Source of the DNA: a virus
Reading direction: 5' to 3' (one strand)
DNA: 64,000 nucleotides
Virus record (IMG/VR): IMGVR_UViG_3300034418_007243
Coordinates: 45,875 to 109,874 of that record
This document shows, in pieces, positions 37,285-50,886 of this stretch (the first letter of the stretch is position 1; each line of letters begins with the position of its first letter). Position numbers and translations under genes: made by a program. The notes below the pieces were generated by a model that saw nothing but the letters and a program-made list of their open reading frames with translations, was not told the DNA's origin and did not search any database.

Positions 37285-37587
37285 CTAATCTTTAACAAAT
37301 TGTCCATCAACCATTTTACCTGTTCTATCTTTAATAGTATGCCAGGCTGATTCAAGACAATCTTCAAGGTTCATATCTTGCATGTGAGCTTGTATCAATA
37401 GTGTTACCATTATATCTCCAAGCGCATCTTTAATTTCTTCTTTGTCATCTGTTATTATAGCATGACATAGTTCTGATAATTCTTCTACAGTTTTCATAGC
37501 TTGTGCATAAGGTTTAGGATCTTTTAGTATTCCTTTTTCTTCTGCCCATGCTATAATCAAACATTCTAATTCATAATAGTCCATCAT
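37285..37587 (-). CDS. MazG-like all-alpha NTP pyrophosphohydrolase
   Basis: KTVEELSEL...IKDALGDIMVTL...AWHTIKDRTGKMVDGQFVK. Confidence 0.85.
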   Translation of the reverse strand: MMDYYELECLIIAWAEEKGILKDPKPYAQAMKTVEELSELCHAIITDDKEEIKDALGDIMVTLLIQAHMQDMNLEDCLESAWHTIKDRTGKMVDGQFVKD

Positions 37588-37629: not shown

Positions 37630-38463
37630 TTAAAAAATATATCTTATAGTATTTAAAGGAAAATACTGACTATATATCTTTTTAAATTTATCAATATATT
37701 TAGTTTTATTTTTTATTGGATAACGCATTACTCCTGATTGATTTTTTATTTCATTAGAAAACCTCATAAGTTCTCTAGCTTCTGGAGATGCTTTTTGCAT
37801 TTGTAATGGATGATTAGTTAATGCTATTACCTCACATTTATTTACACCAGCTAGTTCTTTTACATTACAAAATAAGTCATCATACTCATATGTCCAGCCT
37901 GGTACAAATATTACTGGGCTATAGTTTATATGTACTTCCCATCCTAAATCAATTAATCTATCTATATCATATATTCTAGATATAATTTTTTGCATTTTAG
38001 GTTCTAGAATATCTGAATATACTTGAGGCATTAAACTAACTCTTACTCTTGGTTTTTTGTTAAAGTTATTTACATTAAGTTTCAACAGACCAGGGTATTT
38101 AGTAGCCATTGTTGTATTTAATCTTGGATGATCATCATACCGTTTAAGATAATTATATAAAGATTCAGGAAGATGTTTTTGCATAAGTACAAGATCTGTG
38201 TTACATGCAATATCTACCATAGTATATACAGGGTCCTGTTGATCTGGTACTTTTGTATAACCTTTTTCCCACTCTACTACAGATTGAAATATGTCATCTA
38301 CATTAGTATTTACAAATACTCTTTTACCATTATACCTAGACATGTAACAGTAAGTATCAACACAACCTCCGTAACAACCATATATTAGATTGGGTGCTAT
38401 ACAATTAGCACTATTATTATTTGGTTTTGTTATTAAAGTTTTTGTTTTTTGAGTTTTTATCAT
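37630..38463 (-). CDS. Spore photoproduct lyase-like radical SAM protein
   Basis: GCYGGCVDTYCYM cluster motif. DIACNTDLV resembles the SplB H-donor Cys motif. Also ATKY, RVRVSL, ISRI, GWEVHINYSPVI and GWTYEY. Confidence 0.8.
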   Translation of the reverse strand: MIKTQKTKTLITKPNNNSANCIAPNLIYGCYGGCVDTYCYMSRYNGKRVFVNTNVDDIFQSVVEWEKGYTKVPDQQDPVYTMVDIACNTDLVLMQKHLPESLYNYLKRYDDHPRLNTTMATKYPGLLKLNVNNFNKKPRVRVSLMPQVYSDILEPKMQKIISRIYDIDRLIDLGWEVHINYSPVIFVPGWTYEYDDLFCNVKELAGVNKCEVIALTNHPLQMQKASPEARELMRFSNEIKNQSGVMRYPIKNKTKYIDKFKKIYSQYFPLNTIRYIF

Positions 38464-38641
38464 AATTATATGCGTTCATTATTCTTGCAGGAATTACTTT
38501 TGTGTTATTGCATCTATCACAACATCTGCCATTATTGATAGGTTGAGCATTATGTCCCTTGTCAAATACAACTTTTTGCAATCCTTCTTTGTCAGTTATA
38601 ACATTACCTAAGATGTCTTTATTACAGATACTACATTTCAT
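38417..38641 (-). CDS. Small Zn-finger protein
   Basis: MKCSIC...GHNAQP...GRCCDRCN. Start moved to the internal ATG at 38641. Confidence 0.65.
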   Translation of the reverse strand: MKCSICNKDILGNVITDKEGLQKVVFDKGHNAQPINNGRCCDRCNNTKVIPARIMNAYNYDKNSKNKNFNNKTK

Positions 38642-38654
38642 TTTACTTTTTATT

Positions 38655-39011
38655 TTAATACATTTTGGATATGGATTCATCTATACCATAGTCAATCAAT
38701 ACCTGCCTCCCTTGATAAATTCCCCAATTCTGATGATTGTATAGATCGCAGTTATAAAAGTCCATGTGAGGAAATGTGTTTTTGATTTCAAATATATAAT
38801 TTTCTACAAAATAGTTAATCTCTGTGCATCTTTTTTGGATCACTATGCCAAACCTGGACCAGACTAAAGGAGCCAATAGTTTTCTGCACTTACCGGATTC
38901 CCATACTGCTTTTTCATTTTTACCCTGCAGATACCCTCTGCGATCTATAGGTATTTTGATGGCATATTTGCCTATCAGAAAAACTACCCTTGTTGATATT
39001 TCAATTCTCAT
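38655..39011 (-). CDS. Minimal protein-kinase-like protein
   Basis: TRVVF...YAIKIP...NEK (K/E pair), DLYNHQNWG (catalytic loop), LIDYG (DFG-like). Confidence 0.65.
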   Translation of the reverse strand: MRIEISTRVVFLIGKYAIKIPIDRRGYLQGKNEKAVWESGKCRKLLAPLVWSRFGIVIQKRCTEINYFVENYIFEIKNTFPHMDFYNCDLYNHQNWGIYQGRQVLIDYGIDESISKMY

Positions 39012-45676: not shown

Positions 45677-46738
45677 TTATGAATCAAATTCTTCTGCTTC
45701 AATTTTTAAACAAGGACCCGGTATATAATATTGTTTTATATTAGCATTATCAAAATTAATATAATCTACAGTACATAAAGTTGTTATTGCTTGTACATTA
45801 GCTCTAGTAAACTTCTTATTGTCTTTAAGAATATTTGTTAATGTCATAAGACTCATTGATTTTACTGACTCCTTATCTAAATTAAAATAACTTAATAAAC
45901 TTTTAAAATTTACATGGTTAAACTCTTTATATTTTATAAAAGATTTTCCATATTTTTTTAATATCATTAGTATATACATAAAACTTTTTTCATAATTACT
46001 ATTAGCAAGTAATTCCATAGTCATTATTATAGAAGCATCATCCTCACTAGCACACATTAATACTAGGTCTTGATACTTTTCTTTATCTATAATAATAGAA
46101 TCTTCATTAATATACTTTAGTAATTCATCTTGTTTATATACTAAACAATTATCAGAAAGACTTTTAATTTTAGAATTTATAGGCACAATAAACAATGTTC
46201 TAGAGCCTTGAGCATATCCTTGTTTAATAGCCCATGAACCATCACTTGTATAAAGTTGCAATCCTGTTTGGACATTGCCAGAAGGATCTTTGGGTGATCT
46301 ATAATAAAACTCACTTGCTATAGAACTTTTTATGTATACATGTGAAAAATCATTAGCATCAACAAGCATTTTAAATCTTGTTTCTTTTGGATGATTTATA
46401 TAACGTAACCAATGTTTAAAGTCATCAGATTTCATTTTATAAACATCACGTTTAAACAAGTGATCATTTGTTCTAGGTATTAAATCTGCTGGTGGAATAA
46501 ATGCTATTGTAGCTTTCTTAGGTAGAATAGTAAAATTAAATTTTTCTTTAGCTTTAAACCTTGGCACTGTTGTTCCAGGAAATAAATATATTGTTTCTTC
46601 TTCTAATTTATTTCTTTCTAACTCATTTTGAATATTACAATGATGTTCAAAGTCTTCAAATAAACCACCATGTTCAATTCTTATATCTAACTGATTATGA
46701 CTTATATAATCTATGTATAAATATTTAGTTAAATTCAT
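45677..46738 (-). CDS. Hypothetical protein
   Basis: 353-aa ORF with no decisive motif. Confidence 0.6.
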   Translation of the reverse strand: MNLTKYLYIDYISHNQLDIRIEHGGLFEDFEHHCNIQNELERNKLEEETIYLFPGTTVPRFKAKEKFNFTILPKKATIAFIPPADLIPRTNDHLFKRDVYKMKSDDFKHWLRYINHPKETRFKMLVDANDFSHVYIKSSIASEFYYRSPKDPSGNVQTGLQLYTSDGSWAIKQGYAQGSRTLFIVPINSKIKSLSDNCLVYKQDELLKYINEDSIIIDKEKYQDLVLMCASEDDASIIMTMELLANSNYEKSFMYILMILKKYGKSFIKYKEFNHVNFKSLLSYFNLDKESVKSMSLMTLTNILKDNKKFTRANVQAITTLCTVDYINFDNANIKQYYIPGPCLKIEAEEFDS

Positions 46739-46776: not shown

Positions 46777-48081
46777 TTATTTCATAACTAATTTTTGTAA
46801 CTGAGGATCAATAAATAGTTTTTGGAACTTTGTTTTATTCCCGTGTATAATCTTCTTAGCTAAGTGATATTTTAAATCATTAGTAAATACATCAGGATGT
46901 TTAATCAAAGCACTAATTCTATTTACAATTTCTGGTGTTACTGGATTAGACTCTGCATAATTAAGCGTAAAGTTAATTAATCTTGTAGATAAAATGCTAG
47001 CTATATCTGCTCTATAATCTACAGCTGGATTACCTCCATCACATATAGAACTAAGCAGCTCATCAATTACTTCTTTCTCATCTTTATGTAAGAGCATTCT
47101 TTTAGGACTAATGATTCTATCTAATCTATTGTTAATAAAACTTGTAAACAATGTAGATACTTCAGGGCCTACAGAGCCTTCACCACACATTTGAATTAAT
47201 GGTAAATCTTTTTCAAATGATGGAATAGTTTCTAGTAGTTTAAAGAATGTAGTTAGAGATCTTGGATTAACTTTTTCATTAACAACTTCAGGATTCATCA
47301 ATACAAAATTAATACATCTACCATCAACCTTTTGAGTCTCTGCCCATTCAGCCCAACGTTCATGATTCCACTTCAATATTACTGAAACAAATCTAGTTCT
47401 TTGAGCAACGTCAATAGAGTTTACCAAATAGTTTCCGTCATCTGGATTAGCTGTAAGAACAATGTGCCAATCATCAGGAAGTTTCCAAGAAAGATATTCT
47501 TGTCTATCTACTAACTCCATAACAGCTTGAATAAACTTTACATCAGCACGATTCCAGTCATCAAGAATAAGTATACCGCCTCCTTCTTTGTTTGCAATCC
47601 ATTCAGGTGGACAATAAGACATTCTTTTTTCTCCGGTAAATCTGTAACCTTGTTTTAGATATTCATTAGTAGCATTTTCATCAACCCAAATACATTCAGA
47701 TTCTGATCCGCCTGGTACTTCTACAGTTTCATTAACTTTTTTAGTTACTTCCATACCATTAGGAAGCTTAACTTTTTTAAGAACTTGTCTAACTTCTGTT
47801 TTCTTTTCTGTACTTGTTCCTTCTTTACATAATTGAAACTGACGCAATGGAAAACCTACAAGATCACCTAAGTCTTCTATCTGTGCTAAGTTTAATTTAA
47901 CACAACTTAAGTTGTTTTCTTCTGCAATTTGTAAAGCAACGCTTGTCTTACCAAGACCAGATTCACCAATAACTTCTGTTGCTACAGGTTTCTTACCGTC
48001 TTTTTGAATGTGTCTGTTGTTGTTAATAATGTGTTGCAAAAATGATTTCATTTCTGCAGAGTCTAAGCTAACTTGATTCAT
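46777..48081 (-). CDS. MoxR-like AAA+ ATPase
   Basis: Walker A GESGLGKT, Walker B LILDDWNRA, LTANP, AQRTRF, NPRS; adjacent to a vWA gene. Confidence 0.88.
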   Translation of the reverse strand: MNQVSLDSAEMKSFLQHIINNNRHIQKDGKKPVATEVIGESGLGKTSVALQIAEENNLSCVKLNLAQIEDLGDLVGFPLRQFQLCKEGTSTEKKTEVRQVLKKVKLPNGMEVTKKVNETVEVPGGSESECIWVDENATNEYLKQGYRFTGEKRMSYCPPEWIANKEGGGILILDDWNRADVKFIQAVMELVDRQEYLSWKLPDDWHIVLTANPDDGNYLVNSIDVAQRTRFVSVILKWNHERWAEWAETQKVDGRCINFVLMNPEVVNEKVNPRSLTTFFKLLETIPSFEKDLPLIQMCGEGSVGPEVSTLFTSFINNRLDRIISPKRMLLHKDEKEVIDELLSSICDGGNPAVDYRADIASILSTRLINFTLNYAESNPVTPEIVNRISALIKHPDVFTNDLKYHLAKKIIHGNKTKFQKLFIDPQLQKLVMK

Positions 48082-49280
48082 AATTCTAATTTAATAGTTG
48101 TTCCTGGCAATTCATCCCAAGCATTACCTTGTGAAGAAAGTACCCATAAAATATTTCCTTTTGCGTTTTCAGGTGCTGAACATTCTCCATCTGTAAAATA
48201 GAATAGACAACTAAACTCATTGAGTTTTTCATTGTAATAATCTATAACAGGTTGAAAGTCTGTCCCACCTCTACCGTGTATTTCTAAATCTTTTCTTGGA
48301 TTAAATTTACTTATGTTAGATATTGCTGTATCACATTGTATAATTGTAACATCAGAACCTGTCTTCTTTATATGATGTAATTCATTAAGAAATTCTTTGA
48401 GTTCTTTTGTATTAACAGAAGCTGATGTATCTATAGCTGCTAGTACATGCTTGTGCTTTTTAAATTTTAAACCAGGAAAGTCTGGTAATCTTTTGTTGAA
48501 CTTTCTTCTAGAAACTTTAGTATAAGTTCTTGTAGATTTACCAATAAACCTTCTCATATATCCTTTCCAATCAAACTTTGGCGGATCTATTTGTTTAAGC
48601 TTTTCAATTATACTTGCAATCTCACCAGGTACTGTACCACGCATCTTTTTTACCTGATCAGCTACTTGATCTAAGACATGTGCTGTTTGTGACTTTATCA
48701 ATCTCTGAGTTGCTTCACTTATTTCTTCACTATCCCATTCATGTTCAGGAGTTGTAATTTCAGTTCCGTCACTTAAAGTAACACTGTTATCATTTCCTTC
48801 ACATAAATCTTTTAAAGCATTACCTAACTCACTGTCTTCATTTTTTATCTTACTAAGCTCTTTGTAATAATATCTTGTACCAGCTTTGTAATCTAACTTA
48901 TACCCTTGGTTAATATAAGTTTCTATAAAACAACCATCTTCAGGCAACCATGATCTTTCAATGTATTGATTAATCTCAATATCCATTGCTATATTTAATA
49001 GCTTTTTATCTTGAAGATCATTATAGTCTGTTAAATGAAAGAAAGCAATGTGTAATAACTCATGTTTTAATATGCCTACTTTTTGTATTGGAGAAAGTGT
49101 TTGCCAAAAATCAGGATTAATAGCTAACTCATAGTTAATACCTTTAACGCAAACACCTGCTGTAGGCACTTTCTTTTGGGACCAAATTTTATTTAGTGAC
49201 ATAAGAAGAAGCCCGTAATAGGCTTCTCTTAACATAAGTTCTTTAGATGCTTTAGCTAAACTTTCTATATTATCTCTCAT
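48078..49280 (-). CDS. Metallopeptidase-vWA protein (DUF2201-like), MoxR partner
   Basis: LKHELLHIAF...NIAMDIEINQ; MIDAS DTSAS; GRGGTDF; FTDG. Confidence 0.88.
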   Translation of the reverse strand: MRDNIESLAKASKELMLREAYYGLLLMSLNKIWSQKKVPTAGVCVKGINYELAINPDFWQTLSPIQKVGILKHELLHIAFFHLTDYNDLQDKKLLNIAMDIEINQYIERSWLPEDGCFIETYINQGYKLDYKAGTRYYYKELSKIKNEDSELGNALKDLCEGNDNSVTLSDGTEITTPEHEWDSEEISEATQRLIKSQTAHVLDQVADQVKKMRGTVPGEIASIIEKLKQIDPPKFDWKGYMRRFIGKSTRTYTKVSRRKFNKRLPDFPGLKFKKHKHVLAAIDTSASVNTKELKEFLNELHHIKKTGSDVTIIQCDTAISNISKFNPRKDLEIHGRGGTDFQPVIDYYNEKLNEFSCLFYFTDGECSAPENAKGNILWVLSSQGNAWDELPGTTIKLEL

Positions 49281-49710
49281 CTTTAATTTTTATTATTACA
49301 TCTTCAACAAAAGTATATCCGGTATCAATAAGTTTATTCTTAAAATCCATTGAAAAAGAATCTATTAAAGATTGTTTTGCTTCATAATCAAACTTGCCTT
49401 CATTAACTATTTTAAATAATTGTTTATATGTAAGGTGTGATATACCAGGTCTAAAATCATCATCTAAGTAATCTTTTACTGCATTAGTTAGATTATCATA
49501 AAAAGTTTTATAGTTTGTCTTTATATGTTTATCAGCTACAATACCTTGTTTAAGTACAAGTAATATGTTTATCACATTATAATCTGTTAGTTCTAAATTT
49601 TCCATTATGGTTAAACCAACAGTCCAGTTCTCATGATCTCTTGAAGATATCATAGACAGTATAGAATCAAACTCTTGTTTTTCTAGCATTTTGTTTTCCA
49701 TATTAGTCAT
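49270..49710 (-). CDS. Hypothetical protein
   Basis: 146-aa ORF overlapping both neighbours. Confidence 0.6.
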   Translation of the reverse strand: MTNMENKMLEKQEFDSILSMISSRDHENWTVGLTIMENLELTDYNVINILLVLKQGIVADKHIKTNYKTFYDNLTNAVKDYLDDDFRPGISHLTYKQLFKIVNEGKFDYEAKQSLIDSFSMDFKNKLIDTGYTFVEDVIIKIKDER

Positions 49711-50050
49711 TTAATTTTTCTGTTCTTATCATCCACATAGGTGGCTTTTTTGCATTTATATTATCTACCCATTCTTTTGCTGAAGGTATATAACCAAAGC
49801 AGTCTTCTTTAACATGTTGTTCTCCAACATATCTGGTATAAACTGTTTTACCATCTGAATTTGTAAATGATTTACCAAATTTAGATTCACATTCAAATAT
49901 ACCTTCTGAATGATGCCTGAATATTCTATGTTTGCTATGACCTAGCCAACTCTTAGTTTCATCAAACCATTCATGTATATGAATATAATCTTCTATTATA
50001 CCACCAAATTTTCTAACTGAAGATTTTGCATGTTGTAAAGGATGTGCCAT
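49703..50050 (-). CDS. His-rich small protein (DUF6915-like)
   Basis: MAHPLQHAKSS...IHEWFDETK...HRIFRHHSEGIF...GEQHVKED. Confidence 0.65.
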   Translation of the reverse strand: MAHPLQHAKSSVRKFGGIIEDYIHIHEWFDETKSWLGHSKHRIFRHHSEGIFECESKFGKSFTNSDGKTVYTRYVGEQHVKEDCFGYIPSAKEWVDNINAKKPPMWMIRTEKLND

Positions 50051-50460
50051 TAAAATAAACTTTTAGAATGACCATAAAAATGAGTTTCTACATATCTTAC
50101 ATTATTATTAATGTTACACTCACCTGTAAATACATTTATGGTTATTATTCCAAACCCTCCATCATTATTATACCAATCTTCTATATCTTCTAGTAAATTA
50201 TACATAATATCTTCTATTTCAGCTTCTAGTCCTGAATCAAGTTTTTTATCTATAGATAAATCTTCATGATGTATATAATTATCTTCTGAAAAATCTTCAA
50301 AGCTTAAGTTTTTTATTTCTGCTTTTTTATTATCAATATACAGTATCTCTTCTATAGCTCCACTATCTCCAGAACCTTCATAATATCCTTGTATATAACT
50401 TATTCCTAAGTCTTGTAGTTTAAACAATAGGATTCTGTTATCATCATCTAACTTTTTCAT
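50050..50460 (-). CDS. Acidic protein (DUF6878-like)
   Basis: YEGSGDSGAIE and DWYNNDGGFG motifs. Confidence 0.6.
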   Translation of the reverse strand: MKKLDDDNRILLFKLQDLGISYIQGYYEGSGDSGAIEEILYIDNKKAEIKNLSFEDFSEDNYIHHEDLSIDKKLDSGLEAEIEDIMYNLLEDIEDWYNNDGGFGIITINVFTGECNINNNVRYVETHFYGHSKSLF

Positions 50461-50463
50461 AAA

Positions 50464-50886
50464 TTAAGTTTTATAAAATCTTCCTAAAATATTTTTATTT
50501 AAATACTCATCTTTTTCAAGAACTTCATTTACAAATTGAAACTTTGTTTCTTGATAAGTAAGCTCTGTTTTAGAGTAGCATATCTTAAGTATAGTTCTAA
50601 CTATAGATATACCTTCTTTATGTGCTTTCTTTAATACTTCATTACTACTATAATACTTTTCATAGTCTGTTTTTTTAACCATAGTATATTTCTTAGCTCT
50701 TTTATCTGTCATAGCTGCAATAGCTTTCTTTCCAAATTTCTTTTTTCTAATTGAATAGAAATTCTTTTTGCCAATATACTTTACAAGTTTACCTTCAATT
50801 ACCGCAGTCATTTCATATATAAAACCTACAGCGTTTTCAGGAATCATTTCTTCTGTAAATGTTTGATGGTTTAAAATCCAGCTCAT
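50464..50886 (-). CDS. GIY-YIG endonuclease (T4 endonuclease II-like)
   Basis: GFIYEM...KYIGKK...YYSSN...RTILK...ELTYQE...YLNKNI. Confidence 0.75.
   Translation of the reverse strand: MSWILNHQTFTEEMIPENAVGFIYEMTAVIEGKLVKYIGKKNFYSIRKKKFGKKAIAAMTDKRAKKYTMVKKTDYEKYYSSNEVLKKAHKEGISIVRTILKICYSKTELTYQETKFQFVNEVLEKDEYLNKNILGRFYKT

Follow-up and report, generated by a model that had tools for sequence, protein, structure and literature searches.

The window analysed here is a stretch of 64,000 nucleotides of viral DNA, positions 45,875 to 109,874 of IMG/VR record IMGVR_UViG_3300034418_007243, which is complete at 109,874 bp and has direct terminal repeats. On its minus strand lies a gene for a basic protein (pI 9.1) of 277 amino acids (aa), the subject of this report, which belongs to the spore photoproduct lyase (SPL) family of radical S-adenosylmethionine (SAM) enzymes. 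An initial annotation had pointed out an open reading frame (ORF) of this length with a C-x3-C-x4-C motif and the heptapeptide DIACNTD, and translation confirms both (Table 1). The analysis covered family, fold, conservation of residues, purifying selection, genomic context and distribution. From all of these we predict, with near certainty, a functional radical SAM enzyme of the SPL family whose target in DNA is a thymine-thymine adduct.

The family assignment comes from profile and sequence searches. Pfam PF20903 (SPL) matches residues 8-204 over profile positions 66-253 with 52 bits, against a gathering threshold of 27 (E 6.4e-14). Of the curated models, the best-scoring is NCBIfam TIGR03886, 'spore photoproduct lyase family protein' (138.5 bits, E 2.9e-40). 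When the PDB sequences were searched with phmmer, the sole matches were the SPL entries of Geobacillus thermodenitrificans (E 1.6e-8). The alignment sets gcyggcvdtycy on gcmghc--hycy, which amounts to a two-residue insertion after the second cluster cysteine (Cys2), and DIACNTD on EAACTSD, the segment that holds Cys140. A profile of the family aligns with 4FHC over its full length (E 1.5e-42). A PHROGs search with the 277-aa protein gave no significant match. The protein is a genuine member of the SPL family of radical SAM enzymes in the broad Pfam sense, and the earlier reading of it as an SPL homologue with a hydrogen (H)-donor cysteine and an expanded cluster motif is borne out by Pfam, by TIGR03886 and by the PDB alignment.

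The predicted structure gives the same picture. An AlphaFold2 model built from a 75-sequence alignment has a mean predicted local distance difference test (pLDDT) score of 96.6 and a predicted template modelling (pTM) score of 0.93. In this model, VIA-align superimposes 265 of the 277 residues on residues 62-341 of SPL (PDB 4FHC/4FHF) with a Z of 26.5 and a root-mean-square deviation of 2.4 A. The next-best folds, those of RlmN, the pyruvate formate-lyase (PFL)-activating enzyme and viperin, reach a Z of 13-14. Foldseek of the model to SPL gives an E of 6.7e-15 and a TM score of 0.79-0.80. An SPL fold at this Z score, with a three-cysteine loop and with K122 and S143, is what is expected of the radical SAM superfamily, which is characterised by a partial (beta/alpha)6 barrel that has the cysteine loop after beta1. 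The protein starts at the equivalent of SPL residue 62, and SPL's alpha/beta domain at the N terminus (residues 1-61; four parallel strands and three helices) is absent. The initial annotation was thus correct in calling the protein compact.

The roles of individual residues were taken from the SPL structure paper (PMC3467042) and mapped through the profile alignment to 4FHC. The cluster cysteines C90, C94 and C97 of the Geobacillus enzyme correspond to C30, C34 and C39. The relay tyrosines Tyr96 and Tyr98 correspond to Y38 and Y40, on either side of C39, and the two positions are Tyr in 59 and 50, respectively, of 63 diverse aligned rows. The H donor, Cys140 (Cys141 in Bacillus subtilis), corresponds to C87, and D90 in the same segment is nearly invariant. 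The ligands of the SAM carboxylate, Lys174 and Ser195, are represented by K122 and S143. Of the residues that hold the lesion, the ligands of the 5′ dihydrothymine, Arg193, Glu268 and Tyr339 (the last contacts its O4/N3; PMC3467042), are present as R141, E211 and Y275, and Ser79, from the Ser76-Ser79 loop that holds the 3′ thymine, as S18. All four are invariant in an alignment of 17 sequences of the short clade to which the protein belongs. At the site of the DNA-flipping hairpin of SPL, a shorter hairpin is modelled at residues 238-248; the hidden Markov model (HMM) alignment is offset by two residues there, and the conserved R247-Y248 probably correspond to Lys309-Tyr310, Lys309 being a phosphate ligand in SPL. 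Two additional cysteines are conserved in the close clade, Cys21 (71 of 72 sequences) and Cys210 (72 of 72). They flank S18 and E211, the residues aligned with Ser79 and Glu268, which bind the lesion in SPL; in the rest of the family an aromatic residue occupies position 21.

A word-indexed search of JGI, ENA, Logan and TARA assemblies returned 1601 homologues, nearly all of 277 aa and 75-81% identical, and an exhaustive search of 1.84 billion representatives returned 173 clusters at E up to 1e-3. The family is therefore small but populous. The majority of its full-length members are 277-300 aa long. Close relatives of the query are encoded on 110 IMG/VR stretches, and the 80 loci kept for comparison include contigs of 100-116 kb. 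Two further short-form queries also matched IMG/VR contigs, and there all eight of the eight full-length relatives have the canonical CX3CX2C; a search of IMG/VR for relatives of two other members, P0123 and P0156, found none. In the nearest ESM Atlas clusters, 82-100% of those few members that carry a taxon record are Viruses. In GenBank, tblastn against 50,697 phage records found no match to the query or to two other short-clade members, and megablast of the 12-kb region found none among GenBank phages, though records close to this genome may be missing from the set. Nor did a literature search find a description of a phage-encoded SPL.

Long forms (350-390 aa) are cellular, and in them the N-terminal domain is present. 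One of the family representatives, P0179, is a bona fide TIGR03886 member (566.6 bits). For another, the long-form P0188, relatives occur on at least 570 stretches of species-representative genomes; the 80 that are listed all come from Actinomycetota, e.g., Arthrobacter, Pseudarthrobacter, Curtobacterium, Microbacterium and Kocuria. When a quick maximum-likelihood tree was rooted on the SplB-like rows, the short clade came out on the TIGR03886 side. The phage protein is therefore best described as an offshoot of the non-spore SPL family, rather than of SplB, that has lost its N-terminal part. Because the protein scores below both curated equivalog cut-offs and is without one SPL domain, it defines a new subfamily of short SPL proteins, which in the sampling so far is largely viral and has a variable spacer between Cys2 and the third cluster cysteine (Cys3). 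Longer fused forms (at least 486 aa) were searched for and none was found, which is weak evidence. The sole fusion seen is P0157, a metagenomic protein of 451 aa with a short SPL-family domain behind an N-terminal DUF4326.

The cluster motif of the query departs from the canonical CX3CX2C in having the form CX3CX4C, and its close relatives carry CX3CX2C or CX3CX3C. Within the short clade the Cys2-Cys3 spacer is of two residues (as in P0123, CALNCEYC, 50% identical to the query), three (CNGGCKNYC) or four (C-x-G-G-C-x-x-[ST]-[YF]-C); some members have a longer first spacer, or have lost the first two cysteines. In a maximum-likelihood tree the forms with two- and four-residue spacers are interspersed. 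On the tree used for spacer evolution, in which the spacer was masked and 12 fragmentary or long-branch rows were taken out, the minimum number of spacer changes is 9. A single origin of the four-residue proteins, as one clade, was considered and is rejected by the approximately unbiased (AU) test (difference in log-likelihood 177, p 2e-7). The two-residue indel has thus been gained or lost repeatedly between otherwise similar proteins, and such interconversion argues that both forms work. Three short metagenomic members, P0150, P0168 and P0172, are without the first two cluster cysteines and retain most other conserved residues, among them K122, R141, S143, E211, R247, Y248 and Y275. Possibly these are derivatives that work without radical chemistry.

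In the query and its close relatives the loop itself hardly varies. Among 72 close sequences, the sole variable position of the GC[F/Y/M]GGCVDTYCYMSRYNG stretch is residue 31, a count that is somewhat biased, as CVDTYCYM was one of the patterns by which the close sequences were retrieved. Over 75 diverse sequences C30 and C34 are invariant and C39 is more than 90% conserved. The motif of the query retains the aromatic residue that precedes Cys3 (Y38) and the Tyr that follows it (Y40). The cluster loop of the model is predicted with high confidence. A full-text literature search for CX3CX4C found no radical SAM paper, and as far as that search shows the spacing is unreported. That the odd spacing is labile and recurrent in the short subfamily goes beyond the initial annotation, as do the loss of the N-terminal domain and hairpin tip and the failure of the equivalog models.

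The gene is under purifying selection: the median ratio of nonsynonymous to synonymous substitution rates (dN/dS) between the query and 71 relatives is 0.10, at a dS of about 1.7. The putative H donor, Cys87, is invariant in the 72 close sequences. At the same position three full-length actinobacterial rows (P0179, P0188 and P0229) have Thr or Glu, and their last catalytic step must therefore differ from that of SplB. With respect to the H-donor Cys, the phage clade is thus closer to SplB than is TIGR03886, its nearest curated family.

The uncultured phage that carries the gene is a distant crAss-like phage, as judged from its large terminase (TerL), which is 22-25% identical to those of Crassvirales. 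TerL is matched by 104 of the 50,697 GenBank phage records, including many gut crAss-like and Flavobacterium phages. Among the hosts named in those records are Bacteroides, Flavobacterium and Azobacteroides, none of which sporulates. Because the TerL relatives with known hosts infect these genera, a non-sporulating member of Bacteroidota is a reasonable inference for the host. The initial annotation had spoken of a phage of a non-sporulating host. The hosts of the TerL-related phages agree with this.

The SPL gene shares its strand with the replication module, which includes a Toprim primase, a DnaB-like helicase, an AAA_24 protein, a PD-(D/E)XK nuclease, a uracil-DNA glycosylase (UDG), a SNF2-type helicase, a SegE-like GIY-YIG nuclease, MazG and a glucosaminidase. 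Across the 80 related loci the gene is found between or beside the same two large ORFs of this module, and the order shuffles. The MazG gene, directly downstream in the window, is not an obligate partner: in 28 of the 80 loci it lies no more than 6 kb from the SPL gene, in varying order. Absence of an obligate partner gene fits a one-protein repair enzyme. Upstream, a Cys-rich ORF with no Pfam match overlaps the SPL start by 47 nt. The possibility that the gene is split, this ORF being the missing N-terminal domain, is ruled out: the ORF is Cys-rich, has no similarity to SPL and is adjacent to the SPL gene in only one of the 80 related loci. A photolyase domain was searched for in the complete phage genome and none was found. 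The module also contains three ATPase- and metallopeptidase-related proteins in a row, two small DUF proteins and, adjoining the primase gene, the SegE-like protein, which may be a homing endonuclease (Table 1).

Table 1. Positions, in the window, of the SPL-family gene, its motifs and the neighbouring features mentioned in the text.
Feature	Position	Strand	Basis or remark
Short SPL-family radical SAM gene, 277 aa	37630..38463	-	ATG-to-stop ORF
Cluster motif CYGGCVDTYC, residues 30-39 (C30-YGG-C34-VDTY-C39, CX3CX4C)	38347..38376	-	translation
DIACNTD, residues 84-90, containing Cys87	38194..38214	-	translation
Short beta-hairpin, residues 238-248, EIKNQSGVMRY	37720..37752	-	translation; DSSP strands 238-239 and 246-247 in the model
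Tyr275 codon	37639..37641	-	profile alignment to SPL Tyr339
Cys21 codon	38401-38403	-	extra conserved cysteine
Cys210 codon	37834-37836	-	extra conserved cysteine
MazG-like NTP pyrophosphohydrolase	37285..37587	-	directly downstream of the SPL gene; Pfam MazG, 32 bits
87-aa Cys-rich ORF (C-x2-C ... C-x2-C, zinc-ribbon-like)	38417..38680	-	upstream; overlaps the SPL start
MoxR/dynein-like AAA ATPase, DUF2201 metallopeptidase-plus-VWA protein and AAA-lid protein, in a row	46777-49710	-	inside the replication module
Two adjacent small proteins, DUF6915 (140 bits) and DUF6878 (53 bits)	49703-50460	-	Pfam
SegE-like GIY-YIG endonuclease	50464-50886	-	domain match; adjoins the primase gene

The phage sequence occurs in sequencing runs labelled freshwater, estuary, lagoon, aquatic viral and seawater, the freshwater runs being 8 samples of 2017, possibly of one campaign. 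That the SPL gene is present in open-water relatives and was not found in those from the gut is consistent with a role connected to light, which is only a correlation. Three RNA libraries have contigs over parts of the SPL gene. In a freshwater metatranscriptome there is a 227-nt piece at 37922-38148 with no differences, and oligo-dT RNA-seq libraries labelled sediment metagenome have contigs of a strain about 95% identical within 37693-38367. As carry-over of DNA is possible, these contigs are weak evidence that the gene is transcribed; the uncovered parts carry no meaning. A link of non-spore SPL proteins to UV has precedents in cellular genes: UVC induces the TIGR03886 gene of Curtobacterium aetherium, which does not form spores (PMC12029717), and splB homologues in alpha- and beta-proteobacteria have predicted LexA sites (PMC3323433).

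On balance we favour the prediction that the protein is a stand-alone SPL-family radical SAM lyase for the light-independent reversal of the spore photoproduct (SP), or of a close analogue, in phage DNA. Several findings weigh against this. SP is known from dry or A-like DNA; the literature was searched for its occurrence in virions and packaged DNA, and no report from hydrated virions turned up. The score with TIGR03886 falls well below the equivalog cut-off of that model (437.55), and the score with TIGR04070, the model for SplB proper, is 50.8 bits against a cut-off of 400. The position of SPL Arg273, which contacts the lesion phosphate (PMC3467042), is Thr216 here, and Arg304/Tyr305 at the tip of the hairpin are replaced by Asn-Gln-Ser-Gly; recognition of DNA must therefore differ from that by SPL. 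Position 87 is Cys in only 38 of 69 diverse representatives (39 of 70 rows when the query is included). Binding of the cluster by CX4C is assumed, since the published motif variants that we found all keep CX2C. Finally, a related 99.9-kb contig, 84% complete and with a TerL 72% identical, has no SPL gene, which makes the gene dispensable and gives it the look of an accessory gene. In all, five longer TerL-bearing contigs gave no SPL match, only one of them being as complete as 84%; most TerL contigs are short.

Some of these findings would also be expected if the same radical chemistry were directed to a lesion or substrate other than SP in duplex DNA, such as some other pyrimidine adduct with a methylene or C5-C6 link, damage in DNA that is single-stranded or being replicated, or damaged RNA. 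SPL is presumed to use its N-terminal domain, Arg273 and the hairpin tip in duplex recognition and base flipping, and all of these are missing or changed here; the protein falls short of both equivalog models; and the dry or A-like state in which SP forms has not been reported for virions. R141, E211, Y275, S18 and the H-donor Cys are nevertheless all kept, which points to a thymine-thymine substrate very like SP, and we consider a different substrate unlikely. Still less likely, in our view, is the alternative raised in the initial annotation, that the enzyme has been turned to a new use, radical chemistry at thymine or at an already modified pyrimidine of phage DNA, for evasion of restriction. 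There is a precedent in gp53 of Pseudomonas phage M6, a radical SAM isomerase of SPL-like fold that acts on DNA in the synthesis of 5-aminoethyl-dU (PMC8989533) and the only SPL-fold enzyme known to modify DNA, and the best viral structural match in BFVD is a 469-aa phage radical SAM protein (E 1.8e-7). Yet gp53 itself is barely related to the query (BLASTP E 0.17): hhalign aligns only the generic core (165 columns, probability 88%), and gp53 has neither a Cys at the H-donor position nor a Pfam SPL match. The complete 110-kb genome has no ThyA-family hydroxymethylase (PF00303) and no ThyX (PF02511), and it encodes UDG. No kinase, aGPT-Pplase or pyridoxal phosphate (PLP) enzyme is a conserved neighbour, the position of the SPL gene being shuffled among relatives, and no hypermodification domain was found in the 30 window proteins scanned, a scan in which the kinase and aGPT-Pplase families were not searched by models of their own. 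The proposal is disfavoured because gp53 is unrelated beyond the core and there is no ThyA-family or ThyX gene, and a partner gene is likewise missing. As for the stretched motif, it could have abolished cluster binding and left a non-catalytic lesion binder or a decaying gene. CX3CX4C is absent among the published radical SAM motif variants that we found, and P0150, P0168 and P0172 did lose the first two cysteines. In the query clade, however, none of 72 sequences departs from the three cysteines, the Gly-Gly beside them or the Tyr-Cys-Tyr, at a dN/dS far below one; K122 and S143, which bind SAM, are kept, as is the H donor C87; spacers of two and four residues interconvert repeatedly among otherwise alike close relatives, and the loop is modelled with high confidence. 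Loss of the cluster is therefore highly improbable.

How repair of SP or its analogue might proceed can be outlined by analogy with SPL. Here we infer the binding of the cluster by the stretched loop, the nature of the substrate and the origin of the lesion in virion DNA. After entry of the genome into the cell, the protein would be made from the transcript of the replication module, and the host would supply the [4Fe-4S] cluster to Cys30, Cys34 and Cys39. The two extra residues could form one more turn after Cys2, so that the SAM-contacting Tyr-Cys-Tyr segment stays put. A host flavodoxin or ferredoxin would reduce the enzyme, SAM being then cleaved to the 5′-deoxyadenosyl radical. The radical would take H from C6 of a flipped-out 5-thyminyl-5,6-dihydrothymine, or of a very similar methylene-bridged thymine dimer. 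The bridge would break, Cys87 would donate an H atom to the thymine allyl radical, and Tyr40 and Tyr38 would pass the radical back. The net result would be direct reversal, in the dark, of a UV lesion in phage DNA. More tentatively, the packed virion DNA of aquatic phages may gain SP or an analogue in sunlight, to which a large group of crAss-like water phages may answer with a minimal SPL that has no N-terminal domain and a CX3CX4C cluster; the two parts taken together are a possible scenario, about which we have some doubt.

Among the closest known systems is SplB/SPL itself (4FHC/4FHD/4FHF; B. subtilis SplB; TIGR04070), likewise a single-protein system and of the same fold over SPL residues 62-341. 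It shares with the phage protein the cluster cysteines, the Tyr-Cys-Tyr, the H-donor Cys and the ligands of SAM and of the lesion. The two are about 20% identical and differ in that the motif is CX3CX2C in SPL and CX3CX4C in the phage protein, which also has no N-terminal domain, a Thr in place of Arg273 and a shorter hairpin without the Arg/Tyr tip. The gene belongs to a phage with relatives in non-sporulating hosts, and is in a replication module and not under sporulation control. TIGR03886, from non-spore-formers such as Arthrobacter, Curtobacterium and Microbacterium, is UV- or SOS-linked, and in the tree the short clade is on its side, away from the SplB-like outgroup. Its cellular proteins, 350-390 aa long, include the N-terminal domain, have the canonical motif CAMACAYC and, in the three actinobacterial rows examined, carry Thr or Glu where the phage protein has the H-donor Cys. 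M6 gp53 is likewise a phage radical SAM protein with an SPL-like fold and acts on thymine derivatives in DNA (PMC8989533), but it is of 480 aa, has a canonical CTVGCAFC and lies within a cluster of kinase, aGPT-Pplase and PLP genes.

Two broader comparisons may be made, one with other unusual cluster motifs and one with other viral repair enzymes. Non-canonical radical SAM motifs (CX4-11CX2C of RadicalSAM.org, the HmdB-type CX5CX2C and CX2CX4C of ThiC) likewise represent a three-Cys [4Fe-4S] site with an altered loop length. In the phage subfamily it is the second spacer that grows, from two residues to three or four, whereas in the RadicalSAM.org variants of the canonical fold the first spacer is altered and CX2C is always kept (PMC9477430). 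The active-site architecture of ThiC is different (PMC4389238). As to the theme of a virus that brings its own enzyme for UV damage, the phage protein shares it with virus-encoded UV repair enzymes in general. These include endonuclease V (DenV) of T4 and the photolyases of poxviruses and baculoviruses. They are a glycosylase/lyase or light-driven flavin photolyases, have other folds and deal with cyclobutane pyrimidine dimers (CPD) and (6-4) photoproducts (6-4PP).

If the more tentative scenario is true, in which SP or an analogue arises in packed virion DNA and a minimal SPL binds its cluster through CX3CX4C, this would be the first case of SP biology outside spores and dried cells, and the first radical SAM enzyme of canonical fold with an expanded Cys2-Cys3 spacer. 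The minimal SPL of 277 aa, together with the natural series of spacers of two, three and four residues, would provide a test of how rigid the cluster loop of radical SAM enzymes has to be. The phage clade, which has kept the H-donor Cys, and the three actinobacterial rows, in which that Cys is absent, would make a good pair for comparison. Should SP indeed be what is repaired, it would follow that the lesion arises naturally in places other than spores, namely in the virus particles of sunlit water. A SAM-dependent repair that needs no light, and that current models leave out, would in that case compensate in part for the decay of phages in sunlight, a major term in the turnover of aquatic viruses.

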